A stretch of 63,954 nucleotides of DNA, the filler included, from Craspedostauros australis (Eukaryota), in assembly GCA_030167865.1 (NCBI GenBank). It is 10 parts of 10 records of this genome, joined end to end, with 100 filler letters (N's around TTAATTAATTAA, not from the genome) between each part and the next. Parts side by side here need not be neighbours in the genome. Positions count along the whole stretch, not along the records: positions 3,656 to 33,752 come from JALAGF010006180.1; 9 more parts are not named here. One strand, given 5' to 3'. Positions 8,358 through 61,070 of the stretch are shown here, one piece after another; within the stretch, counting starts at the first letter, position 1; the number at the start of each line of letters is the position of its first letter. A program made the position numbers and the translations under genes. The notes below the pieces were generated by a model, which saw only the letters and a program-made list of their open reading frames with translations, was not told where the DNA came from and made no database searches.

Positions 8358-11300
8358 TCATTCCGTGCTCTTCCTCTTCAGCACGATTCCCCTGCTTTCC
8401 TCCTCTTTGTCTTCATCGTCGTCAGTGGTCTCGAACTGATCGCTCAGCTTCCTCACCATCTCTTCCACGATCACTTCGCCCTTCTCGGACCACTCCTGTC
8501 TGTTGCTCATGGCGTAGTTCAAGTACTCGTCACCCGAAACGCCAAACACGCCACATTCCTTCAGCTTCTTCGCAAGCGGGATGATGTACAGATCGAAGAA
8601 CGTCAACTCGCCCTTCGCCCAGAAGTCAGCCGGATTGCTCTGTGCGCGCCCGTTGCGGTAGGCGGCATACAGCTCGTGGAACAGCCGTTCGTTCCACTTG
8701 CGGTAGACGTGCCAGTGCTGCATGGTGTGGGCAACGTCCGAGGCCTGGATGAGATGCTCGATGACGATGGTCGCCTTGCGATTGATGCAATCGCGTGCTG
8801 TGTGAGCTGCTGCTGCTGCTGCTGCATCCTTCGATCTTCTGCCGTGGCTCTCCTTGTGTCCCTTGTGCTCCTTTCCTTCGAAGGCCTTGTTCCATCGTGC
8901 GTTGCGGAGGGCCTTGAGTTCCTTGTCGACGATGTCTGTGGCCATGACAGCATTCACCACCAGCTCGCGGAAGCGGCACAGCTCGGCGTTGGTGGAGAAG
9001 ATGGCGCTTCGGAGGTTCCCAAATCGCGGATCCATCAGCAGATCCCAGGACAGGCTCAGCGAGTTCTGCTCTGCGACGCTCCTGTTCTTGTAGATGGCGG
9101 CCAGCCGTGGATTCTCGCCGATCAGCTGCTGGTTGGAGACGCCCGTGTGATCCGCATCATGGATCAGCGCAGCGAACGCGCATGCGAACTGAGTCAGAGG
9201 ATCGGATGTGATCCCGTACGTGTGATCGTGCAGCGAAGATGCTTCCTTGTGGGATCTACCTGCATCTGCATCTACACCGTCCTTGATGGTCTCACGGATG
9301 GGCGGATGGGTTGAGGCTGCGCCAAGATCGAGATCGGAGGGTGCCACGATGCGTGTCATGAGCTTGATGACGGACATGGTGACGTGGCTTGCGTGCTCGA
9401 AGCTGTGGAATGGGTTCTTCCTGTACAGGCTTGCGACCTCCGTCACATACTGTCGGAGCTCTTCGATGACATCCTGATGGATGTCGACTGGGCCCTGTGC
9501 CTGCTCCTCGTGAGCGACGTTGGCATCAAACTCGGGCAGTTCGATGATCTCCTTCACTTCATCCAGGAATGTCTCACCTTCTCCGTGATCTACATCGATG
9601 TTGGCGCCCACAGGCTGGCTGCGGGTCTCGCCCTGGTTGTGGAACGTCCGCGAGGCATAACGCCTTGCGACGATGCGCTTCAGCAGCTGCATCAAGGTCT
9701 CGACATTCCAGTCGATCAGTCGAGAGGTTCTCGAGTCGAGATGATCGGTATCATCGATCCCGATGGTATCCCCGAGCTCGAAGATGCGGCCACTCGTGTC
9801 TGTTTCGCTACCTGCATCGCCGTCTCCTTTTCCCTTGCCGGGCGAGAGCCAGTACGTCTCCATCTCGCCTTTGCCCTTGGCCCTGACGGTATCGGCTCGT
9901 TTCTGCAACCAGTGAGACTTGCCTGCCTTCGCAACAAGCTCGGCCGTCTGCTTGGAGACTTGGATGCGCCCGCGCATGCTTGTACTCTCGAGTCGCGCCG
10001 TTGTGTTCATGGTGTCCCCGAACAGCTGGAAGCGAGATCGCTCGCCACGCAATACTCCGGCGGTGACTGGCCCGCTGTGGATTCCGATGCGGATGCCCAG
10101 ATCGGCGGTGTCCGGACCAAGAACGACCTCGAGCTGATGGACGATCGTGCTGAAGCTCCAGAGACAGTCCTGTGCGAACCTCGCCATGGAGATGGCATGA
10201 TCTGCTCTTGGTTCAGGCAGTCCCGTCACGGCGACGTAGCAGTCGCCGACCGTCTCCACCTTGAACACACGCCGGCGCTTCGCCAGCTGGTCGAAGGAGC
10301 TGTAGACGGTCTCCAACAAGGTGAACACCTGACTTGGCTCTCGGACGGATGCCCATGCCGTGAAGCCCGTGATGTCACCAAACATGACCGTGGTCTCCAG
10401 GAAGAACTCGGCCAAGGGACGTGACTCGAACTTGATGAAGTCGTTGTCCTCTCCGCGTGGGAATGAAAGGAAGGACTTCATCTCGGATGTCGTCCCTCTG
10501 CGCGAATCCTTTCTGTCCACTCGGCTTTGATCCAGGACCTGATCGCGGAGCTTGCCTGGGAAGAGGGAGGTGACGATGGCATTGGATCGCGCTGCCTGTC
10601 CCACCAGCTTCCAGTTGCGTCTTTGCACGAATAGATCGTACACGAAGAAGATGACGATGACCGAGGCGAAGGTGATGGCGACCACGGCGGCGTAGATGGC
10701 GGGTGTGTTCTTGATGTAATGGTTGGCGAACTCTTCGGAGGGGAAGATGTCCTGTTCATGTTCATGTTCATGTTTGTGTTTGTGTCATATGGTACAAGTA
10801 CAAGTACGAGCGCAGAGCAGAGCAAAAATGACGCAAGAGGCGCAACAGATAGCCGATGTACTCATTAGATTGGGAGAATGAATCAGGGCAAGACAGAGCA
10901 ATGCAAAGGAAGGCACCATCAAACGCAAACAAATCAAACCAACTCCTTTTGATGTTCCCCCTGAGCACGTGTACTTACCAATGCATACATACAGTGTCCT
11001 GGTGTGTCCCGGAAATCCGAATGACTGTGGATGGCCAAATCGACGTGACGTTGCATGTGCGAATATTCACCCTCGTGTAGATCTCCCTCACCAACATACA
11101 CTGCATCGGGGCCAATGATCTCGTATGTGAAAGTCTGGCCGCAGTTGTTCTTCAGCACGGCGAAGATACCAGAGAGACCCTCTGGGAGAAGGAATCGCAT
11201 GGCTGCATCCCATGCGACTGCTGCTGCAACGACGCCCACGATCTTGGATTCGTAGTCACCGGTCGTCTCGTGTATCGGGTTGAAGAAGATGCTGTGTGGA

Positions 11301-14574: not shown

Positions 14575-17500
14575 CTATCCTCGCTTCCCCCTCGCCCACC
14601 CCATGCTCTTCCTCTTCAGCATGATTCCCCTGCTTTCCTCCTCTTCGTCTTCATCGTCGTCAGTGGTCTCAAACTGATCGCTCAGCTTCCTCACCATCTC
14701 TTCCACGATCACTTCGCCCTTCTCGGACCACTCCTGTCTGTTGCTCATGGCGTAGTTCAAGTACTCGTCACCCGAAACGCCAAACACGCCACATTCCTTC
14801 AGCTTCTTCGCAAGCGGGATGATGTACAGATCGAAGAACGTCAACTCGCCCTTCGCCCAGAAGTCAGCAGGATTGCTCTGTGCGCGCCCGCTGCGGTAGG
14901 CGGCATACAGCTCGTGGAACAGCCGCTCGTTCCACTTGCGGTAGACGTGCCAGTGCTGCATGGTGTGGGCAACGTCCGAGGCCTGGATGAGATGCTCGAT
15001 CACGATGGTCGCCTTGCGATTGATGCAATCGCGCGCAGTGTGAGCTGCTGTTGCTGTTGCTGCATCCTTCGATCTTCTGCCCTGGCTCTCCTTGTGTCCC
15101 TTGCACTCCCTGTGTCCCTTGTGCTCCTTTCCTTCGAAGGCCTTGTTCCATCGTGCGTTGCGGAGGGCCTTGAGTTCCTTGTCGACGATGTCTGTGGCCA
15201 TGACAGCATTCACCACCAGCTCGCGGAAGCGGCACAGCTCGGCGTTGGTGGAGAAGATGGCGCTTCGGAGGTTCCCAAATCGTGGATCCATCAGCAGATC
15301 CCAGGACAGGCTCAGCGAGTTCTGCTCTGCGACGCTCCTGTTCTTGTAGATGGCGGCCAACCGTGGATTCTCGCCGATCAGCTGCTGGTTGGAGACGCCC
15401 GTGTGATCCACATCGTGGATCAGCGCAGCGAACGCGCATGCGAACTGAGTCAGAGGATCGGATGTGATCCCGTACGTGTGATCGTGCAGCGAAGATGCTT
15501 CCTTGCGAGATCTACCTGCATCTGCATCTACACCGTCCTCGATGGTCTCACGGATGGGTGGATGGGCTGAGGCTGTGCCAAGATCGAGATCGGAAGGTGC
15601 CACGATGCGTGTCATGAGCTTGATGACGGACATGGTGACGTGACTTGCGTGCTCGAAGCTGTGGAATGGGTTCTTCCTGTACAGGCTTGCGACCTCCATC
15701 ACATACTGTCGGAGCTCTTCGATGACATCCTGATGGATGTCGACTGGGCCCTGTGCCTGCTCCTCGTGAGCGACGTTGGCATCAAACTCGGGCAGTTCGA
15801 TGATCTCCTTCACTTCATCCAGGAATGTCTCACCTTCTCCGTGATCTACATCGATGTTGACGCCCACAGGCTGGCTGCGGGTCTCGCCCTGGTTGTGGAA
15901 CGTCCGCGAGGCATAACGCCTTGCGACGATACGCTTCAGCAGCTGCATCAAGGTCTCGACGTTCCAGTCGATCAGTCGAGAGGTTCTCGAGTCGAGATGA
16001 TCGGTATCATCGATCCCGATGGTATCCCCGAGCTCGAAGATGCGGCCACTCGTCTCTGTTTCGCTACCTGCATCGCCGTCTCCTTTTCCCTTGCCGGGAG
16101 AGAGCCAGTACGTCTCTATCTCGCCTTTGCCCTTGGCCCTGACGGTATCGGTTCGTTTCTGCAACCAGTGAGGCTTGCCTGCCTTCGCAACAAGCTCGGC
16201 AGTCTGCTTAGAGACTTGGATGCGTCCGCGCATGCTTGTACTCTCGAGTCGCGCCGTTGTGTTCATGGTGTCCCCGAACAGCTGGAAGCGAGATCGCTCG
16301 CCACGCAATACTCCGGCGGTGACCGGCCCGCTATGGATTCCGATGCGGATGCCCAGATCGGCGGTGTCGGGACCAAGAACGACCTCCAGCTGATGGACGA
16401 CCGTGCTGAAGCTCCAGAGACAGTCCTGTGCGAACCTCGCCATGGAGATGGCATGATCTGCTCTTGGTTCGGGCAGTCCCGTCACAGCGACGTAGCAGTC
16501 GCCGACCGTCTCCACCTTGAACACACGCCGGCGCTTCGCCAGCTGGTCGAAGGAGCTGTAGACGGTCTCCAACAAGGTGAACACCTGGCTTGGCTCTCGG
16601 ACGGATGCCCATGCCGTGAAGCCCGTGATGTCACCAAACATGATCGTGGTCTCCAGGAAGAACTCGGCCAAGGGACGTGACTCGAACTTGATGAAGTCGT
16701 TGTCCTGTCCGCGTGGGAATGAGAGGAAGGACTTCATCTCGGATGTCGTCCCTCTGCGCGAATCCTTTCTGTCCACTCGGCTTTGATCCAGGACCTGATC
16801 GCGGAGCTTGCCTGGGAAGAGGGAGGTGACGATGGCATTGGATCGCGCCGCCTGTCCCACCAGCTTCCAGTTGCGTCTTTGCACGAATAGATCGTAGACG
16901 AAGAAGATGACGATGACCGAGGCGAAGGTGATGGCGACCACGGCGGCGTAGATGGCGGGTGTGTTCTTGATGTAATGGTTGGCAAACTCTTCGGAGGGGA
17001 AGATGTCCTGTTCATGTTCATGTTTGAGCGCGGAGCATTGCGGAGAAGAACGAAGGCGCATTCATAGATGCAATAGACAGTCGATGTAAGTATGAATCAA
17101 GACAACATCAGCTGAGGTTGAGCGGAAGAACAGTGTGCTGTCAGCGTAGCAGAACACCCTTGCCTCATCTCGGACTTGTGATGTTTCCCTGAGCATAAGT
17201 ACTTACCAATGTGTACATACAGTGTCCTGGTGTGTCCCGGAAATCCGAATGACTGTGGATGGCCAAATCAACGTGGCGTTTCATGTGCGAATATTCACCC
17301 TCGTGTAGATCCCCCTCACCAATGTACACTGCATCGGGACCAATGATCTCGTATGTGAATGTCTGGCCGCAGTTGTTTTTCAGCACGGCGAAGATACCAG
17401 AGAGACCCTCTGGGAGAAGGAATCGCATGGCTGCATCCCATGCGACTGCTGTTGCAACGACGCCCACGATCTTGGATTCGTAGTCACCAGTCGTCTCGTG

Positions 17501-22398: not shown

Positions 22399-23481
22399 AT
22401 GAGACGAAGACGGCAAGCGAAGAAGGTCATCACGAATGGTGCTGCCATATCGTTAGCATCGCCATGCGAATGGAACGAGGGGACGCAGAGACAGTCGACG
22501 TTGCGATCATTCTTCTCTGTTGCACCTGCAACAATCAGCGCAAAACGAAAGAGACCAAACGCGCCAGCATACGCTGATGCAGCAAGTGCATCTCTTTTGC
22601 GGTCCACAACGTCATCGGCATTGCAGTGCAGTGCGACGTCTGACGAGCATTGCATGAACTCGAAGCCGCCAGGCGCGACGCTCATTCCTCCATCATTCTC
22701 GCAGGAAGTGCCAAACGATGATTCAGCAGAAGCATCCAATGCAACCACCAACACAAACGACAAGAAGAGGACCAAACCAGCATTCGAACAGCTGTACTTG
22801 GACTTTGGACAATCCAGCTTCGGCCGCAAGATCGAATGCACCATCTGCGGGATGCTCTACGAAGTGGGATTACCAGCGGAAGAACGCATGCACGACGACA
22901 TTTGTCACAATTACAAGCACGGCGTCGCCTGGCCGTTCAAATCTGCCGCCAAGGTCAAGCTGAAAGGCGTCACCGTTGCGACCACGACGGCATCCGCGTA
23001 CGTCGTGCAAGTGCAACCGCAGCGCGTGGTCTCCAACAAGTTCAAGGATACGCTGCAGCTGCTGTTGGACATTGTGCGAGACGACCTGGGTTCGTGCGCC
23101 GACACCACCTACAATGTGAGACAGCACGAGACTCAATTCCCGCATCCGACGCTCTATCTCTACATCCACAAACAACGCGTCATCGGCATGGCCATGATGG
23201 AACGCATCGGCGCGGCCTATCCTGTTCATGACAGCATGCAGCGATCGCGCGTTGCCCAGAAGGCCATCCTCGGCGTGGCCCAGCTATGGACGCATGCTGC
23301 CCATCGACGTCGTGGTGTGGCGCGGTGTCTGCTGGATGCGGCGCGTGCCAACATGGTCTTCGCCATGCCGCGTGTGCCTAAGACGCACATGGCATTCTCC
23401 AGTCCCACGACGGCGGGGTATGAGCTTGCGTGCGCATACTGTGATGCGTCGGTGCTGGTGTACGACAGCGAATGCGCGTGA
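22399..23481 (+). CDS. ECO1: Cohesin N-acetyltransferase Eco1/ESCO
   Basis: PIP box QSTLRSFF. QLYLDFGQ followed by the zinc finger CTICGMLY...H...C/H. C-terminal acetyltransferase GVAQLWT...RRRGVARCLLD...AFSSPTTAG. Confidence 0.92.
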   Translation: MRRRRQAKKVITNGAAISLASPCEWNEGTQRQSTLRSFFSVAPATISAKRKRPNAPAYADAASASLLRSTTSSALQCSATSDEHCMNSKPPGATLIPPSFSQEVPNDDSAEASNATTNTNDKKRTKPAFEQLYLDFGQSSFGRKIECTICGMLYEVGLPAEERMHDDICHNYKHGVAWPFKSAAKVKLKGVTVATTTASAYVVQVQPQRVVSNKFKDTLQLLLDIVRDDLGSCADTTYNVRQHETQFPHPTLYLYIHKQRVIGMAMMERIGAAYPVHDSMQRSRVAQKAILGVAQLWTHAAHRRRGVARCLLDAARANMVFAMPRVPKTHMAFSSPTTAGYELACAYCDASVLVYDSECA

Positions 23482-25182: not shown

Positions 25183-27490
25183 TTACACCAAATTGTTCCA
25201 ACTCTCTGGCCACATGTCATCAGGAACGAAGAGCTTGTGTCGGAATGCTCCTGTCAGATGCCAGTCCTGCGAAAATGCCGTGTCGTACAGAAAGATGGCA
25301 CTCTCTTCGAAACCGGACACCACCACATGCTCGCTCGATCTCGAGCGAAGTTGCACAGTGTATGTGTGTGACGACGACGACGACGACGACGTGCGGTGTC
25401 GTTGTAGCACTGTGCAATGCACACGATGGTCTGTGGGCCGGACAACCGGTAGATACGAGTAGAGCACGTTGTTCATCTGTGAACCTGCCTGTTTTTTGCG
25501 AAATGATTCATAACACATTGTACGCAAATTCGGCGGATACGGGTCCTGCTCCAATTCTTCCTCGGTGAGAAAGTACCGCGGACGCTCGTACTGCGATGAA
25601 TGCACGTAGGATGCAGAATCGAGCGGAGGCTGCCATTGGGCGACGTGCCGATTCCAAGCTGCTTCCCACTCTGGACCATAATCCATAAAGATCTCCTCCC
25701 CTTGGCCAATGTCCCGCGTTGCAACGTAATCGAAGGACAGGCCGATGTTCTCGTTGGCATTGGCAAGAAATTCGACATCCTGCTGCAACCAATCGGGCTT
25801 GTGCGCGATCAATTCTCGATCCGGCCATTGGATGCGCACGTTGATGCTGCTCGGATTTGGATTGTGGTTGATGTAGTTCACGATTCCGCCGTACGGTGTC
25901 AAAAGGACGGTGGAATTGCGATGTCCGAAGCTGTAGTTGGTCACGAGGTCGGGCTTGGTGTGCTCATGCGATTTGGGTTCGCTATTTCGCACGCCATCAT
26001 GGGGCACTTCCAATAGATCCTTGCCTTGTTTCGCGATGTGGATCAGCGGCGCGTAGCCTACGATTGTTCCCTTGGGCAGATCCCTGGTAGCGAATGCACC
26101 ACGACCTGCATGTGGCAAAGTGGAATCATCCGGGTGCATGTGATCCTGGCACTTGCCATACTGTTGCAGCCATTCCAGAGATCGGCGGCCTTTCTTCTCA
26201 ATGAAATGCCGCGATGTGGAACTCTGGCGTTTGCTCTCGTTTGATGCCATTTGCTGCTGCTGGCCTTGTTGCTCCTTGCGCTGTGCTGCCTGACGCTGTT
26301 GGACGACACTCCATTCTTCATGCGGTAACACCGAAAAGGACGCCGAGCGTGGTTGTGGAAAGGACTTCATCAGCCGCCACAAGCGTTCAATGTGGCCATC
26401 GTCCAGCTCCGTTGGATGCCTTGCTCTCATCTGCTGCACCCACTCGTCGTACTGCATCATGAACGCATCCGCATCATCCAGATGCTCATCCAACGTCACG
26501 GCGACATCCGGTATCGTCGGTATCCATCCGTGCCCGTAGGATGCAAACAGCTCGGACCCACTCGCGACGGACTGCGTGGTCCTTGTGATAGCCGAATGGT
26601 ACGGTGAGAAGGCTCCAGCGCCCGGGTCCGATCGCGGTACGTTGGCGGTGCCGTATTGAGTCTCGAAGACTGATTCGATGTTGTTCATGTCCAGCAATGA
26701 ATTGACGGTACAGCCCACGCCGGGTATGAAGACGGACTTCGTTTGGGAGCGGTCCAAGTCATTGTAGCTCTCGATGTTGACCGTCTTTCCTTTCCATATG
26801 TACCGATCCCACAACGATCCATCACGGTTGAATTCAGTGGGATGCTTGGCCCTTCGTCGGAGAAGTGAGGGTTGGTGTGTACACGAATGTTGAGAGCAGT
26901 ATGCATGGGCCCAGTACAGTTCGTAGGATTGGTTACCATAGGCATGGTTGTGAGTGAATGAGGTAATAAGTGAGTGGTTTGTTCGGAATGGCAAAACGGA
27001 ATAAACAGCAAGGCAGGATAGCAACAGGGCAGAGTACGCGTTGTGCACAATGCAATCATCATCAAAGCTTCTGCGCTGTCCAGAGCCACTCTTTGCAAGG
27101 TGGATCGCATTCTGGAATAGCACTATCCATCCCACTGGTCATGAAACCACGAACTCTACTCGTAACGTACCATCCGCGAAATAGCAGAGGGATGGCGATG
27201 TCGGGGAAGTTGATCGTCTCATTCATCCCCAAATCCTTGCCTGTGAAGATGCCCAGGTTCGTGAAGTCTCCCAACGTGGACGGCGCCATATACACCCCGC
27301 ATTCCACCTCCCTCGCGCTGCCTGCCGCCGGCGATGAAGAGCACGTGCCCTCATCGCTGCCGCCGTCGACGCATTCCTGCTGTGCCAAGGCGGGTTTGCT
27401 GCAGGCAATCGCAGCCGCAATCAGCGAAGCCACAGTCCACCAGGTCACCAGCATCACGTCCTTTGCTGAGAAGATTGTGCAGCGCCTCAT
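25183..27490 (-). CDS. Signal-peptide-bearing SET-domain protein (diatom-type), 2 exons, ~662 aa
   Basis: Exons 27490-27171 and 26851-25183. The GTACGT...AAG intron restores frame (GW-AKH). Hydrophobic N-terminus ending ALA-QQ. SET motifs AGRGAFATRDL, NYINHN, ATRDIGQGEEIFMDYG, plus a degenerate N-terminal SET-like copy (LGIFTGKDL, TVNS, ELFASYG). Confidence 0.85.
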
Positions 27491-30469
27491 CCCGTCACCT
27501 CTCCAACATTGTGCGGCAGTTTAAAGGCTTGAATATTGCAGAATACAATCGTGAAGTGGAGCAGCAGAGTCGGCAGCACAAGCACGAGTAGTCTGGTATG
27601 CTGATGGTATCGTATCGTGCGAGAAGGTATCAGGAACAATGGAGGTTCCGTCCGCAAATGGCGAATGCTGTCGCCGTCATTTGTTGCGGTGATCACTGTT
27701 TGTGCGAGAATTTCAACGCGTGTCGTTGACAAGATCTCGTTCTTGCGTCACTCCTTATTCATGTTTATTATATCATCGCCGCAACTCCTATAGAGATTCG
27801 ATCGCATGAATCAAGTTTCATGTTGATTCGATATCTTGTTTCGTTTTGCATTCTATGTTGCGACTGGTCACTAAAATGGCCTCATGAATTGTCATCTCGG
27901 AGTCATCACCCACGAGTGGAGGCAACAAAAAGTGAGAGCATCTGGGTCGGCATCTGCACAACCAACCATCTGGATTTGGCGGGCTGACGAGCAGCCATCT
28001 TGAGTGCGGAATGTCCGTGCCGGGCATCCTCCCCGGCCACAAGCGGCCATCAGGGGGATTTGCAACCCGCAAGGCCTCCTACAACCATGCCGATCGCCGA
28101 TCGGGGGTTCCCAACAAGAGCGACTGACCATGCCGGCTGATTGTTCGGATGGTCTCTGCGAACGCCACTCCGATGGACGGTCCGTCGCAGACAAGTTGCG
28201 GGCAAGGTCGCGGCAGCCCTATCATCATCATACTCGCGCTCGAGTATCATGGAGCAGATTGATCGGTAGCATTTACGAAACAAACCCCATGGTTGGCTTC
28301 GGACGGTTTTGACGTGTTGGCGCCTTTCGGTGGTGAGATCGACGTGAGGGGCAGAAGCAATGAGACACTCGAGCACCACAGATATTGAACAACGACGAAG
28401 TCGATGCTACTCTACCATGCATGCATGCATGCATGCATACATACACTACTTTGCTCCACTCTGCTCCGCTCGATTTGGACCACCGACTTTCACATCTTTC
28501 GCCAGTTGTGGAGCGACTGGTGCACTATCCTCGTCAACGACTACTATACTCCGCAATAGAGTCGCGCAGAGTAGAGCGCTGCAAATGCACAACTACACTA
28601 GTACACTACTAGTACGAGTACAACAGGAATGTCCATCAATACGTGACGACTACACGTGGCGCTTGGCTTCAACGACGTCGAGGTTGCGTTGATCGTGGCT
28701 CTGGACGACTCTGCAGCATTGTATGCCATCGAGAATGTTCCTTGGTCATGGAGAAACGCCACGAAATCCATCACAATCCGAACGGCCTGTCACGCACATC
28801 ATCAAAGCACAGAAAGTCAATCGTCGCTTCCATCATGCAGGTGACGACCGTTGTCATGAACATCTGGTGCGTGGCTGTTGTTCAATCCATCGACCAATCG
28901 CCGGAGCTTTGTTACCCAGCCAGCCCTCCCTGATGGTGCGTCTTCAGATTTATGATCGATCTCCCCAAGGTGCGAACGCAGTCTTGAGTCATTCACTCCA
29001 TCCTCCCTTCCGTCGTTGGTTTGGCGTGGCACGGCCTATGGTATTGTGGCTCGTAGTGTATGTATTATGTTTCTCATCCGACGGTCAAGAGATCTGCTTG
29101 TTCTTCTTCTGCTGGTTTTCATCTGCCGCCTGGCGTGGTGCCGGAGACCATTTCTCACTTCCCTTTTGTGTTCTTTGCAACGTATAGAGCGTTGGCGGTG
29201 CTGCGGTGGCGTGGCGACGCGGTAACATGATCACTTGAAGGCGTCGAACGACGGCAGGTTCTTTCATCTTGGACATGTGTTGGCGCGTTTGGTGATCGAC
29301 AAGAACACCATCAGTTCTTCGTGACTTCGAGTACAACACAGCCCGAACAGCGGCGGCGATCCGCGCAGAAACAGCAAAGCGCCAATACCAGCACATTCGT
29401 CTTTCAACGGACGCTTCGACCATCACGAAACATCACGGACGGTGACTTTGTGAGGCCCCACAGTCATTCCATGGGCGCGATGGGGTTCGTGTTGGACAAC
29501 AGTTCAGTGTCTTTGCCTCTCAAGCGATGATCCGAATAACGGAGGAGGTGTCCAGGACAGCATAAGTGTTGTGCAGACCTGCGCGCGTCGCGTCGCGTGA
29601 AACACTTTTTGCCCACGTCGAACAGTCGCGGAGTCTTGGTTGAGGTGTCAATCCAATAAATCCCAACCCATTTTGCCTCATTCTACAAGACACAAGTCAT
29701 CAGTGCGGCATGCAAACACCTCCGGCGGATTGTCCGCGCCAAACGCAAAGTCCGTCTTCACATTTTGCCGCCCAAGGCACATCACAAAATGAGTTGTGCC
29801 CAAAACTGTCGATCAACACTCTCCTCTCTGGCGGCAGGAGGGAAGGAAGCACACAGCGAAAGCAATCACGCCCTTCACATCCATCACGATCAAACACTTT
29901 CATCGCTCACATGCATTCGCACCGTCTCCGCATCCCATGTCGAATGGCACAACCAAGACCAACCCGATGGCATCTAATCGCTCATCACAAAGTTGGTGAG
30001 ACCCCTTGCTCCATCAAAACGCGAAAATCTGCAGTACGATCCTACCTGCGATCTACGGAGACGAGCATGCTAGCGCAGATTGAGATGGTCGAAGAGGGAG
30101 GCGAGCGAACGCGCACCTGGTGTAGATTCAATACCGTTCGTTACCTTGGGAGAGCAGCATGCGACGGCCATCCGTGAGCATCTCCGGTACAGAACCTGCG
30201 ACAGCTCTACGCTCACTCTCCGGTGGCTCCGCTCCAACCTCATCCCAACTTTCCAACGACCCCGTGGCAATCCATAGTAACTTCGCGATGCTCCCATCGG
30301 ACGCTCGCTGTGAACCATGCAATAGCCGCATGAATCCTCACTTTTGGATTCTCGGCAACATCTTCTGCTCACAATCTCAACTTCTCAGCAAGTAACAACC
30401 AAACCAAACCAAGCCATAATCGCACTCGCAACCAACACACCAAACACCAAATCAAACAACTATCCCACC

Positions 30470-31189
30470 ATGCCACGCTTCACCTCCGTCATCCTCTCCG
30501 TCCTCTCCGCCGCGGCCCTCCTCGCCACCAGCACCACCTCCTTCGCGGACGCTTCCATCGTGGTCAACTGCACCCCAGCAGATGGACCCAATGACAAGTG
30601 CACCGTCAATGACCTCGCCAACCTGCGCGAGAAGATCCTCAAGATGAGCAAGACCTGCGCCAGCGAAGGTTCTGCGCACAAGTTCGACGACACCGACCTC
30701 AGCGGCGAGCCGCACTGGGTGAAGTCTGCGTTCCCCATCGGCACCCGCCGCAGTTTGGCCGACGCCAAGACAGGACTCCGTGGCGGCGACGCCCCCAAGA
30801 CTGAAGCCCTCAAGATCAACCCAGAAGTGGCCGCCCGCTTCGAAGAAGCCATGGGCCCCCAGGGCCAACGCAAGCTCCAGCAGGTGTGTCCAACCTGGGT
30901 GTGGCCGATGTGCCTGACCACCGACCCGAACACGCAGTTCACATGCTGCGCCTACCTTGGCGCCGTGTGCGTCTACTGCGCCGGCTACGAGCCGGGCCGC
31001 CGCATGTTGGGCGGAGAAGAGGAGACCGTGTTCGAGGCGGAAGCGCCAGTCGAATCTATTGTCACGTACATGCCCAACATGGCCGACGCTTGCACACAGC
31101 AGTTCCAGGAAATCATCAAGACCAACACGGACTGCTTGGGACCACCAGAGGAGGCCAAGTGCCACATCATGGACATCATCACCGCCTAA
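30470..31189 (+). CDS. Secreted Cys-rich precursor protein (239 aa) with R/K-x-L processing sites
   Basis: ATG in CCCACCATG context, signal peptide MPRFTSVILSVLSAAALLATSTTSFA, strong C-ending codon bias, RRSL/RKLQ/RRML motifs, 12 Cys. Confidence 0.85.
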   Translation: MPRFTSVILSVLSAAALLATSTTSFADASIVVNCTPADGPNDKCTVNDLANLREKILKMSKTCASEGSAHKFDDTDLSGEPHWVKSAFPIGTRRSLADAKTGLRGGDAPKTEALKINPEVAARFEEAMGPQGQRKLQQVCPTWVWPMCLTTDPNTQFTCCAYLGAVCVYCAGYEPGRRMLGGEEETVFEAEAPVESIVTYMPNMADACTQQFQEIIKTNTDCLGPPEEAKCHIMDIITA

Positions 31190-32410
31190 ACCTCGGGTCG
31201 CTTCTCCGCCCGCGAGCAGATGGATGGGCGGAGCAATGAGTGAATGTGCAAAGTGCAAAACGCATGCACCATGCTTCACGAAAGAGCAGCCAGCCATATC
31301 CCAATACAAATATTGTACACTTCGATAAATATACTACAACTAATAGATCATCTTATTCCAAGCCAGCATTCTTTTGTACGAGTACACTCAAAGTAGAATG
31401 CGTGTACTCTTTCACTACTCTGCGGGGATATGCCCCGCACTCATACCGCTCGTACGGAAACAACAGAAATTGATGAAGGAACAGATCCACATCAATGAAA
31501 CTGTCCATACCGCGATCAGCTATCTGCTGCTACAGGGTTGAATGGCGCTCCTTGGTATCCACGATACATCACCAGTGAGAACGACAGGTGGCAGGGCCGC
31601 AAGGCGCCAGACGCATCGAACGCCATGCAGTGACATGTCATGGCGCATTTCGCAAGATCGTTTGTGCTCGGTCGGCTTCTGACGCAGGTTCCCCTTTGTC
31701 CTCGACAGGATCATGATCGCTTCTCGGATACTTTTGCGCTGAGCGCTCTTCTTCGATTGGCGACGTGCGTTGGCTTGGTTTCCCGCCAGTTCTCGGAGGA
31801 CAGGAGTGGGTTCATTCTCCAATCTTTGCCTTTGTCCTTCCGACCAGCCTCGTCATTCGCTCTGTGATAGCTTGCACGAGGCTGAATCAACCCCAGAAGC
31901 GCAATGAGAGAGAGAGAGAGAGAGAGAATGGTACGTACGTGCGCACAACCGATCGTAGACGCGCAAATAGACGCGTGAGACGAATCTCGACTGTTTTGAG
32001 AACATTGGCGACAATTGTGAATGATCGGAAGCACCCGAGCATCGCCAAATCAACCAAGAATCAAGAGCCACAAAGAATGACAAACGTTCCAAAAGCGCAC
32101 GGCCGTGGGCCCAGGCACTCATGAGGGCTTCACTTGTGCCGCGATTGTATCGTCAGCCTGCGAGCAGAGCTGTTCTTCGCCCGAGAGGCGCAAGCGATTC
32201 GCCTGTTCATTGCTCGGCCCCAATCATCCCCCCATGCGTAGGTCGTACTCGTACTCGTACTCGTGTGTGTGTGTGTGTGTGTGTGTGCTGCGGCACAGGT
32301 TCCGCAGCACCATCCATGATGATCGATTTCGACTGGTTTCCATCCTTCCTGATGTTTGCGCCACAATCTCTCCTCTGTTCTGTTTTGTGACCACGAAATG
32401 GCGAAACCAG

Positions 32411-42099: not shown

Positions 42100-42199
42100 N
42101 NNNNNNNNNNNNNNNNNNNNNNNNNNNNNNNNNNNNNNNNNNNTTAATTAATTAANNNNNNNNNNNNNNNNNNNNNNNNNNNNNNNNNNNNNNNNNNNN

Positions 42200-43926
42200 G
42201 TCTCCCTTTGGTCCTCCTGGGATGAGGATCAAGAATGGGCAGAACGGGCAGTCAACACACCACGAGAACAAAGGCCCTTTGGTTAGGCACAGTGGGCACC
42301 ACGCGTTGTCTCTGTCGCGTCGAGACGCGGTCTCGATCAATCCGTCCAAGTAGGAGCGGATGGGGCGCACGTTGTGGATTGGCTCTGGTCGCCTTGCTGA
42401 GGCCGTCGCGTGGAGGTCGATGCCGGGCATCGCGATCTCGTTGCTTTCGGTTTCGTCAGCTTCGCTCTCATCAGACGAGAACAAGTTGTCACTCATCATG
42501 CGATCCGCGTTGACTTGTGGTCCGTAATAACCGTAGTCGTTCGGGCTGCGAATCCCAACCACTTCGACCGATCCATCGTCATTGTTGTTGTTGGTCCCGT
42601 TGTAGAATCCTGCGGCCAGGTTTCCATCGACGACCATGAGAGCCATGTCCTCCATGAGGTTTTCGATGCCGCTCTCCGTGTCGTGGGTGTGTGTTGTCAC
42701 GATTTCGTGGTTGGTGAGAATTTTGGTTTCGCTCACATTTTCGATGTTGCGCGCGATTTTTCCATCCTCTGCGATTTCGTGACACATCATCACATCATCG
42801 ACGGTGACCAGCGCGACGTCGTTCATGCCGTCCATCCCGTCAGTAGCTACATTGGCTGAGTCTGCGTCCTTCATCGCTGCTTTCAACTTGAAGCATTGCA
42901 AGATTTTGTGGCCTGTCTTGCCACAGAACTTGCACTTGCCGTTGAAGCCTCCGGCGCTGAAGTTGCCGTTGTTGCGGTTGCCGTTGCCGCGGTTGCCNTT
43001 CTTCTTGGCGCCACCGCCTTGCTTGCCGTTGCCGCTCTTTGTAGGGGAGCGACAGTCCGCCTTCTTGTGTCCGTAGATGCCACAGTTGCGACAGTTGCCC
43101 TTGAATCCGCCGATCGCGGCCAAGGCCATCTCCTCCTTGCCATGGTTGCCTCCTTCGCGCTTAGAACCATGTTTGGTATGGTGGCGGTCGTAGGTGAGGC
43201 ACACGGCCTCGCGGATGTCTTTAACTGTCATCTTGTCTTCTTTGCCTGCGAACTTGAGCTCTATGAGCTTCACGTCCATCTCGTAGTCTCTCCCGAGAGC
43301 GTTGAGNNNNNNNNNNNNNNNNNNNNNNNNNNNNNNNNNNNNNNNNNNNNNNNNNNNNNNNNNNNNNNNNNNNNNNNNNNNNNNNNNNNGCGGAGCACCT
43401 CCATCTCGGTGAGGAACGAATCAGGGCGCTCGCCCTTCTTCAACCGCATTCCGTTGAGTTGAGCCAACAACTGTGCCTTCACTGGAGCAGTACGTTGCTC
43501 GTAGATGCGCTCGAGCGCCTTCCACGCCTTGCGTGGATCACCATCTTTGTAGGTACCGCTCTTGCATCCCAGCACAGCCATGAAGGCAACATTGCCTTCC
43601 GGAGTTTCATGGTTGATAGCCATGGTCAGTTCTTCAAACGNNNNNNNNNNNNNNNNNNNNNNNNNNNNNNNNNNNNNNNNNNNNNNNNNNNNNNNNNNNN
43701 NNNNNNNNNNNNNNNNNNNNNNNNNNNNNNNNNNNNNNNNNNNNNNNNNNNNNNNNNNNNNNNNNNNNNNNNNNNNNNNNNNNNNNNNNNNNNNNNNNNN
43801 NNNNNNNNNNNNNNNNNNNNNNNNNNNNNNNNGGGTGAGGAACTTAGCGCTCCATGCGTTCCAGTTGGACTTCTTTCCGTCGAACACGATGGGGTAACGA
43901 TCGGACTTGCCAAAGAGGGAGCTCAT
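42200..43926 (-). mobile_element. Ty1/copia gag with two CCHC zinc knuckles (gapped, partial)
   Basis: FDGKKSNWNAWSAKF N-terminus, AWKALERIYE, CRNCGIYGHKKADC, CKFCGKTGHKILQC. Confidence 0.88.
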
Positions 43927-58815: not shown

Positions 58816-60969
58816 ATTCGGGTGGTTCGACTTTGTGTGGTACATGAATCTCCAGGGAGCAAACATGAACACAAAACATCTTGGTCGCTACCTCGGTCCA
58901 TCAAAGGCCGTGGGTGAAGCGATGTGCTCGTACATTCTCACATCTTCAGGCGCTGTTGTTTCTAAATCCTCTGTCATTCCTTTATCCGATGTCGACCTCA
59001 ACAGTGAAGTAATGAAGCAGCAACAATCCGACTTCATGTCCAATCTACAAAATAAATGGAAAGATCGAATGGAAGGCATCAAGCCAGGGGACGACGGAGA
59101 CGATGTCGACGACACAGCCGAAGACATTGCATTCCTGGAACAGACTACATCATTGGAACCTTTGATTGAGCCAGCTGACGCCGACGAAGACGCATANGAT
59201 CGATACCTGTCNGCTCGAGTCAAGNTACCTNCGGGTGATGACATCCAATTTGGTACTGTGAAGCGCCGAAANCGCGATGCGAGCGGGAAGCTGATTGGTC
59301 ACTCACATTCAAATCCACTTCTTGACACGTCCATGTATGAGGTTGAATTTGTCGACGGGCACAGTGAAGTGTTCAATGCGAATCAGATCGCAGAAAATAT
59401 TTACGCACGAACAGACGACGACGGATACACGACGCTCCTGATGGAGGACNNNNNNNNNNNNNNNNNNNNNNNNNNNNNNNNNNNNNNNNNNNNNNNNNNG
59501 AGCCAGCTGACGCCGACGAAGACGCATATGATCGATACCTGTCCGCTCGAGTCAAGTTACCTGCGGGTGATGACATCCAATTTGGTACTGTGAAGCGCCG
59601 AAAGCGCGATGCGAGCGGGAAGCTGATTGGTCACTCACATTCAAATCCACTTCTTGACACGTCCATGTATGAGGTTGAATTTGTCGACGGGCACAGTGAA
59701 GTGTTCAATGCGAATCAGATCGCAGAAAATATTTACGCACGAACAGACGACGACGGATACACGACGCTCCTGATGGAGGACATCATTGACCACAAGCGAC
59801 TTCCTACTGCAGCAACCGCTGATGACAAGACAGCTACGAAGACAACAAAGGGATGGAAGCTGTGTGTGTTATGGAAAGACGGATCTACATCATGGATTCA
59901 TTTACGAGATGCCAAAGAAGCTGATCCTGTGAAGACAGCCGAATACGCAACCAACAACCAGCTCACCAATGAGCCTGCCTTCCGATGGTGGGTTCCTTAC
60001 ACAATGAAGCGACGCAACCGCATCCTGATGGCCAACCGCAAACGATACTTCCGACGCAATGAGAAATATGGTCTTGAATTACCGAAGAGCGTCGAGCGAG
60101 CTCTTGCGATTGACGAGGAGACAGGAACCGACTTCTGGCGTAAAGCATTAGAGAAGGAGATGAAGAACGTTCGACCAGCATTCGACATCAAAACAGAAGA
60201 CACGAAGCCACCAGTCGGATACACCTACATTGCATGTCACATGATCTTCGATATCAAAGTCGACCTCACTCGAAAGGCACGACTTGTGGCAGGCGGTCAC
60301 ATGACTGAAGCACCATCCAGCATAACATATGCCAGTGTGGTGACACGCGAAAGCGTTCGAATCGCATTCCTCTTGGCGGCGCTGAACGATCTCGATGTGC
60401 TTGCGGCAGATGTGATGAATGCATACCTCAACGCGCCATGCCGCGAACGTGTCTACACAACATGTGGACCTGAGTTCGGGGCAGACGCAGGGAAGGTAGC
60501 AATAATCTGTCGCGCACTCTACGGGCTCAAGTCAAGCGGCGCTGCCTGGAGGGCGCACCTTGCAGAGACACTGCAAAACTCACTCGGATTCACCTCGTGT
60601 CGTGCAGACAGCGATGTTTGGATGAAGCCAGCAGTTACGAGCGATGGGTCTGAATATTACGAGTACATCCTCGTGTACACTGATGACATTCTGGCGATCT
60701 CCAAAGATCCCAGCGCGATACTCTCACACATTGGTTCTTACTTCTTTCTTAAACCCGCTTCGATCGGTCCACCAATAACATACCTCGGCTCTACAATCGC
60801 TCCGTTCCATCTCACAGCAGAACCGGAGCGGCCAAAGTGGAGCATGGGATCCCAGCGATACGTCCGCGAGGTCACGAAGATGGCGCAGAAATGGCTTGAG
60901 GCCCGTGGCGGTAAATTCCGTACCAGCGCGAAAAGCGTCATACCAAACGGTTACCGTCCAGAGCTTGAC
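58816..60969 (+). mobile_element. CoDi-like Ty1/copia pol: post-integrase region, chromodomain-like segment and reverse transcriptase
   Basis: LGRYLGPS, IIDHK...KGWKLCVLWKDGSTSW, RKARLVAGGH, ADVMNAYLNA, RALYGLKSSG, LVYTDDIL. Confidence 0.95.
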
Positions 60970-61070
60970 NNNNNNNNNNNNNNNNNNNNNNNNNNNNNNN
61001 NNNNNNNNNNNNNTTAATTAATTAANNNNNNNNNNNNNNNNNNNNNNNNNNNNNNNNNNNNNNNNNNNNC

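Follow-up and report, generated by a model that had tools for sequence, protein, structure and literature searches.

A narrow family of putatively secreted, cysteine-rich diatom precursors with three conserved Arg-x-Leu motifs as candidate cleavage sites

A gene located at positions 30470-31189 of the window (the whole 63,954-nucleotide stretch of Craspedostauros australis DNA analyzed here) encodes a 239-amino acid protein that, in our reading of its sequence and that of its relatives, represents a narrow and hitherto undescribed family of secreted diatom precursors cut at three sites of the RXL type; we assign this interpretation a probability of roughly 0.5. Three conserved Arg-x-Leu motifs probably mark the cut sites, and one of the pieces delimited by them is a 40-residue peptide with six cysteines. 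Secretory precursors bounded by RXL or RRxL motifs are already known. What is new is a precursor built from cysteine-scaffolded modules, with a core of the C-C-CC-C-C type placed between two cysteine-bearing flanks. We infer the secretion, cleavage and disulfide pairing of this precursor, the release of its core, and any role that it may have.

The reading frame runs uninterrupted from an ATG to a TAA stop codon over 239 codons and constitutes a complete single-exon coding sequence (protein P0001), to which the two relatives described below (P0002 and P0003) align end to end. The ATG at position 30470 is the first in a stop-to-stop frame that opens at position 30326, and it lies in a favourable start context with an A/C-rich leader ahead of it. 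The strong codon bias noted in the original prediction was reproduced: GC3 amounts to 0.83, against a range of 0.62-0.74 for six further long ORFs from elsewhere in the window, and C occupies 136 of the 239 third codon positions. This third-position bias agrees with the plus frame, and both relatives align to the plus-strand protein from Met1 through the C-terminus. The coding strand of 30470-31189 is the plus strand. An antisense ORF (30452-31297, minus strand; 281 amino acids), longer than the gene that it overlaps, in all likelihood arises as a side effect of the C-rich third positions of the plus-strand gene; it has no Pfam match, and no relatives were found on that strand. This overlap, together with a word-index search that yielded no relative, might lead one to view the gene as a chance ORF or a pseudogene in GC-rich DNA. 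We regard this view as barely tenable: it is refuted by two full-length relatives (E-values of 2e-42 and 1.3e-40) in which all 12 of the 12 cysteines are kept, and it sits poorly with a third-position bias that matches the plus frame and with an antisense ORF devoid of Pfam matches.

An exhaustive phmmer search of 1,835,955,588 proteins returned exactly two matches, P0002 and P0003, both of which are 41-44% identical to the window protein over their full length. P0002 (225 amino acids; E-value 2.0e-42) is a JGI protein. P0003 (242 amino acids; E-value 1.3e-40) is an MMETSP transcriptome sequence whose name begins with 'Craspedostau...'; Craspedostauros is a genus of raphid pennate diatoms. Since P0003 is present in the transcriptome of a diatom culture, at least this one member of the family is transcribed. 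A profile search with the three-sequence alignment (A1) recovered P0002 and P0003 again and nothing else among 8,000 scored candidates. The word-index search with the single protein produced 547 candidates, none with an E-value of 0.01 or below, and a scan of metagenome contigs with A1 gave 339 pattern matches, none of which was confirmed by tblastn. When the protein was compared by tblastn with the window itself, no paralogue was detected; the next-best match had an E-value of 0.15.

No Pfam domain was found in the window protein at E-values up to 10, apart from a sub-threshold match of DUF3927 to the signal peptide, and none was found in P0002 or P0003. A sequence profile search of the PDB returned nothing significant (best E-value 0.17), and searches of the ESM Atlas with the whole protein and with residues 137-176 alone returned no usable match. 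Literature searches revealed no paper that pairs the name 'Craspedostauros australis' with RXL and none that mentions the transcript identifier of P0003; a search for C. australis proteomics and frustule work turned up one unrelated review. Sequence comparison establishes a genuine family of very narrow distribution, with members in three diatom-like organisms so far, and this family appears undescribed in that it has neither a Pfam entry nor a solved relative nor a paper found in these literature searches.

The window in which the gene resides is eukaryotic, as is evident from its GC/PDE fusions, an ESCO-type acetyltransferase, a SET-domain ORF and a copia-type reverse transcriptase. Two minus-strand ORFs (8358-10481 and 14575-17061) each combine a guanylate/adenylate cyclase domain with a cyclic-nucleotide phosphodiesterase domain; they are arranged in tandem about 6.2 kb apart, and the identity of 96% between them (685 of 711 residues) points to a recent segmental duplication. 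In Seminavis robusta, the sex-inducing pheromone has been reported to induce a bifunctional GC/PDE more steadily than any other transcript (PMC4726125). The GC/PDE genes of the window lie 13-22 kb from the precursor gene, and no link between them was found. The GC/PDE fusions, like the name of P0003, point to a diatom. An ESCO1/2-type acetyltransferase ORF (22399-23481, plus strand) with zinc finger and acetyltransferase domains has two relatives in an index of 5.8 billion proteins, with 54-57% identity across 14-17% of its length, and the lineage of the source genome seems to be poorly represented in this index. A SET-domain gene follows at 25183-26688 (minus strand), and the approximately 2.8 kb upstream of the precursor gene (27600-30400) hold short, unconvincing ORFs on both strands. 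The precursor gene stands isolated between the SET-domain gene and a masked repeat region. The latter (32400-63954) has a lower G+C content (0.34-0.54), contains dozens of N runs (the window has 3,355 N in total) and carries ORFs for a copia-type reverse transcriptase (59665-61017) and a zinc-knuckle protein (42152-43279). The region resembles a partly masked stretch rich in transposons. Neither Rfam nor tRNA scans of the window yielded a match.

The protein begins with a predicted signal peptide (residues 1-26; 30470-30547, plus strand, as are all features that follow). It comprises a basic n-region (R3) and a 12-residue hydrophobic core (VILSVLSAAALL; mean Kyte-Doolittle value 2.66), and the position of the predicted cut, between S-F-A and D27, was deduced from the small residues at −3 and −1. 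Both features, the hydrophobic core and the small −3/−1 residues, are present in all three proteins, in good agreement with the signal peptide and the secreted type of precursor that had been predicted from the DNA sequence alone, and the 239-residue protein showed no second transmembrane-like stretch beyond the signal peptide. An ASAFAP-like Phe following a signal peptide is a feature of plastid targeting in diatoms. We discarded this destination for the window protein, since the relatives do not share the Phe and an acidic region lies downstream of it.

The mature chain (213 residues; 20 Lys plus Arg, 26 Ser plus Thr, pI 4.8) is organized into modules and linkers that alternate with the basic motifs. 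The N flank (residues 27-92; 30548-30745) contains the invariant cysteines 34, 44 and 63 and a conserved stretch, C-A-x-E-G-S-x-H-x-F-D-D; it is 45-50% identical to the relatives, with 20 of 66 columns invariant. It ends at site 1 (RRSL, residues 93-96; 30746-30757), which reads RRAL and RRNL in the relatives, so that R93, R94 and L96 are invariant. A variable spacer follows (linker 1, residues 97-133; 30758-30868), with indels and 22-28% identity; only 2 of its 36 columns are invariant over residues 97-132. Site 2 (RKL, residues 134-136; 30869-30877) corresponds to RRL and RRRL in the relatives (QRKL, MRRL and RRRL across the family); R134 is invariant, and all three proteins have an R-[KR]-L sequence at the corresponding position. 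The six-cysteine core (QQVC...YEPG, residues 137-176; 30878-30997) has a mass of 4.4 kDa and a pI of 4.05, is free of Lys and Arg, and includes six aromatic residues. Its cysteines (140, 148, 159, 160, 167 and 170) form the pattern C-x7-C-x10-CC-x6-C-x2-C, and all six, in the C-C-CC-C-C order of knottin-type peptides, are invariant in the three proteins. The core is 28-48% identical to its counterparts in the relatives, with 10 of 40 columns invariant. Site 3 (RRML, residues 177-180; 30998-31009) reads RRRNL and RRRL in the relatives, with R177 and R178 invariant, and an RRxL motif can be read there in all three proteins. Linker 2 (residues 181-198; 31010-31063) is acidic, with six Asp/Glu and no Lys or Arg; it has indels, 22-35% identity and 1 invariant column out of 18. 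The C flank (residues 199-239; 31064-31186) carries the invariant cysteines 208, 222 and 231 and is 39-51% identical, with 14 of 41 columns invariant. The elements named in the original prediction, namely the three basic motifs, a Gln-initial six-cysteine peptide followed by G-R-R, and three cysteines in each flank, are thus all present at these positions.

Conservation statistics for this family derive from three sequences in a small tree and are therefore indicative only. In alignment A1, 57 of the 239 positions are invariant, all 12 cysteines among them. All three proteins retain the three basic R-x-L sites and have no dibasic pair outside them. We counted 3, 3 and 5 dibasic R-x-L motifs in the three sequences, while 20,000 shuffles of each protein gave means of 0.10-0.15 (p ≤ 3.5e-4 each). 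The site arginines are invariant at five of five positions, compared with 52 of the 234 other positions (Fisher p = 6.7e-4, with n = 3 sequences). Furthermore, the sites coincide with the transitions between conserved modules and linkers rich in indels: identity is 39-51% in the flanks versus 22-35% in the linkers. Outside the cysteines, invariant residues are found at 4 of 34 core positions, as opposed to 17 of 63 in the N flank and 11 of 38 in the C flank (28 of 101 for both flanks together). It had been proposed at the outset that relatives would preserve the flanks and the cleavage sites around a varying core, and this is what the three proteins display: the sites are kept in 3 of 3, the flanks are conserved, and the core retains its six cysteines but little else.

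The location of these conserved sites at the exact borders between modules and linkers supports the proposed cutting by a diatom protease of the RXL type, with a preference resembling that of S1P for RRxL. RRxL occurs at sites 1 and 3 in all three proteins; at site 2, directly in front of the core, it occurs in only one of them, and site 2 for this reason fits the looser RXL rule and not the strict P4-Arg rule of S1P. The same features bear on a different interpretation, according to which the protein is an uncleaved, single-chain secreted or cell-surface protein with six disulfides, whose Arg-rich motifs are conserved surface loops with a role in binding or structure, or of which a single site is used, e.g., for the removal of a pro-domain. 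A fold tying all parts of the chain together is conceivable, given an odd number of cysteines in each flank (3 + 3) and six in the core. Against this, none of the three proteins has a dibasic pair anywhere but at the three border sites, which are followed by acidic or variable spacers, a layout that is typical of processed precursors. Conservation is also nearly absent from the indel-bearing linkers (2 of 36 and 1 of 18 invariant columns). We consider an uncut protein unlikely.

Structure prediction bears on this question as well. Two AF2 models had mean pLDDT values of 43.7 and 41.9, and only the flanks reached values of 54-79. Both models show a strand-helix ... helix-strand succession. One of them has a strand (residues 28-35) and a helix (46-64) with a pLDDT of 61-67 in the N flank, a helix (194-217) and a strand (230-238) with a pLDDT of 62-79 in the C flank, and a pLDDT of 22-39 in linker 1; the core has a pLDDT of 34-40 in both models. 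Trimmed of low-confidence parts, the flanks superpose as one alpha/beta unit of about 86 residues on generic folds (Z ≤ 6.0). In a VIA-align comparison with 48,161 chains, the best score (Z = 6.0, for SPFH, 4-OT and MIF, which are generic two-layer alpha/beta folds) stayed below the noise level of 7-8, and no fold was assigned. When the N flank (27-92) was paired with the C flank (199-239) in a complex prediction, without controls and without alignment A1, the score was 0.02. The models hint that the flanks form one domain into which the middle part is inserted, a placement shared by both models that would also suit an uncut chain. Since the core is left unmodeled in these poor models, disulfides between core and flanks are possible, and bonds of this kind, if present, would hold all pieces in one molecule after cutting.

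Taken as a cleaved precursor, the protein might be processed as follows. The signal peptide would bring the precursor into the endoplasmic reticulum, where its 12 cysteines could form six disulfides. Within the secretory pathway, an endoprotease of the diatom RXL type, with a preference similar to that of S1P/SBT6.1 (RRxL), would then cut after the Leu residues of RRSL, RKL and RRML, and the basic tails may afterwards be trimmed in a silaffin-like manner. The predicted products are an N piece of 66 residues (pI 5.1, three cysteines), the variable spacer, the hydrophobic, acidic core of 40 residues with six cysteines, and an acidic C piece of 59 residues with three cysteines. The odd cysteine counts of the flanks argue for pairing either between the two flanks or between flank and core. 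Given these odd counts, the N and C pieces are likely to remain connected through disulfides as a small alpha/beta unit, and the core would then be a separate module with three disulfides. The products would act outside the cell, would not be silaffin-like and would lack C-terminal amidation.

The closest precedents are found in diatoms themselves. The repeat units of Sil1p end in RRIL or RRNL, sequences that are absent from mature silaffins (PMC4557024), and the statement in the original prediction that RXL cleavage occurs in secreted diatom proteins such as silaffin precursors accords with this report. RXL motifs terminate the repeats of other wall proteins too, and RXL has been proposed as a general motif by which a specific diatom endopeptidase recognizes its substrates (PMC4557024). 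The paper on Silicanin-1 attributes the removal of RXL domains to a 'yet unknown protease' (PMC5525289), and in a 2022 paper RXL is still referred to as a 'potential target site' (PMC9650480). The window protein shares with Cylindrotheca fusiformis Sil1p and the silaffins, and with silacidins, cingulins and Sin1, a signal peptide and segments bounded by RRxL or RXL, and it comes from the same group of organisms. In place of the RRIL and RRNL ends of Sil1p, it has RRSL, RKL and RRML, and its relatives have RRAL, RRNL and RRRL. There is no sequence similarity to silaffin, cingulin or silacidin precursors (the phmmer matches are the two relatives, and Pfam matches are absent). The window protein also differs from silaffin-type precursors in that it lacks repeats and a Lys/Ser-rich or NQ-rich composition, and in that its segments are cysteine-scaffolded modules.

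These precedents raise the possibility that the protein is a structural component associated with the frustule, the girdle bands or the mucilage, processed at RXL sites like silaffins, cingulins and silacidins, and that it is abundant in the wall instead of giving rise to a diffusible peptide. RXL processing is described, in the three papers cited, only for biosilica-associated proteins, of which RXL is regarded as typical (PMC4557024, PMC5525289, PMC9650480). The GC3 of 0.83, as compared with 0.62-0.74 elsewhere in the window, suggests an abundantly expressed gene, P0003 stems from a culture transcriptome, and cysteine-rich modules have been reported in adhesive and surface proteins of diatoms (10.1101/2023.03.06.531300). 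The composition of the mature chain speaks against such a role: with 20 Lys plus Arg, 26 Ser plus Thr and a pI of 4.8, it shows none of the Lys clusters, Ser-rich, acidic phospho-Ser or NQ-rich sequences of silica-associated proteins and no Pro/Thr/Ser-rich tract, and its densest group of lysines (K55/K58/K61) is not conserved in the relatives. Moreover, the search of 1.84 billion proteins, which should include many other diatoms, revealed no relative in these, in contrast to what is seen for core wall proteins, and the eight trail proteins reported in 10.1101/2023.03.06.531300 are of other types. We therefore judge a wall or mucilage component to be improbable.

Outside the diatoms, the plant site-1 protease AtS1P/SBT6.1 cuts RALF23 at INRRIL↓ATRRY, an activity lost when RRIL is replaced by GGIL, and GLV1 at ERRRAL↓G; the motif is given as RxxL/RxLx in a 2026 review (PMC13082318). 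The precursors of AtRALF23 and GLV1/CLEL6, in which RRxL lies beside a small or disulfide-containing mature peptide, resemble the putatively secreted window protein in being precursors of the secreted type and in carrying RRxL, which its family has at sites 1 and 3. They have one or two sites compared with three in the window protein, in whose family the site preceding the core reads RRxL in one of three members. Pfam searches placed neither the window protein nor its relatives in the RALF or GLV family.

Animal precursors with cysteine frameworks provide another comparison. Those of the conotoxin and spider-toxin type carry a C-C-CC-C-C framework. The mussel MgCRP-I type can be added to this group, and the window protein is similar to it in the C-C-CC-C-C order of its core and in the coexistence of conserved pre/pro parts with a core that is variable outside its cysteines (4 of 34 invariant positions vs. 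28 of 101 in the flanks). The core loops of 7, 10, 0, 6 and 2 residues do not match the consensus loop lengths of knottins, and the window core is distinguished from the animal peptides by its acidic and hydrophobic character and by its position between two cysteine-bearing domains. In proinsulin-type precursors, N- and C-terminal cysteine-containing segments surround a middle part with dibasic borders, and the two ends stay linked by disulfides. The cysteine-bearing ends of the window protein could remain linked in the same manner after excision of the middle; the difference is that this middle has its own conserved six-cysteine module, and there is no relation in sequence or fold to proinsulin. 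A pattern of conserved pre/pro parts and a variable core has also been described in PMC4558851.

Animal precursors also inspired the proposal that the core is released as in a prohormone, capped by pyroglutamate and amidated at its C-terminus through Gly-Arg-Arg. The window protein by itself is suggestive of this, as its core opens with Gln-Gln and the junction with site 3 reads ...YEPG-RR. The relatives are not: Gly directly precedes Arg-Arg at the end of the core in the window protein only and in neither of the two relatives, which have PG-F-RRR and PG-T-RRR at this place, and stramenopiles including diatoms are described as completely devoid of PAM in a 2019 review (PMC6529398). Since the Gly is unconserved and this review reports no PAM in diatoms, amidation is not supported, and the corresponding part of the original prediction does not hold. 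Site 2 is followed by Gln in two of the three proteins and by Ser in the third; the suggested pyroglutamate cap hence finds some backing in the former and is at odds with the latter, which leaves it as a weak proposal. An animal-style, amidated prohormone strikes us as very improbable on these grounds.

The precursor reading defined at the beginning, i.e., a secreted protein cut at three RXL-type sites, leaves a more specific role for the core to be considered. The core freed at these sites could be the first gene-encoded, convertase-released, disulfide-rich signal of a diatom (serving as a pheromone, in allelopathy or in defence), an idea that we advance as doubtful. For a role confined to mating no support was found, the evidence for expression being the culture transcriptome that contains P0003. 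The known mating cues of diatoms are treated as small molecules (PMC4726125), and our literature searches found no gene-encoded precursor of a cysteine-rich peptide from a diatom. Were the core such a peptide, it would evolve in the way of venom and defence peptides, with a fixed cysteine scaffold and fast-changing loops, and the N and C flanks would serve as a disulfide-linked chaperone or carrier.

What the family means for diatom biology hinges on the fate of the precursor. If it is left uncut, it would add one more lineage-restricted secreted protein. If it is cut, a cysteine-scaffolded precursor unrelated to silaffins, with three RRxL/RXL sites, would widen the range of substrates of RXL processing, and the precursor would offer a compact, testable substrate for finding the diatom RXL protease. 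Should its core act as a peptide signal, this protease would be a general convertase of pro-peptides and not an enzyme specific for silica-associated proteins, and release of the core would open up peptide signalling or peptide defence in organisms that are major marine primary producers.
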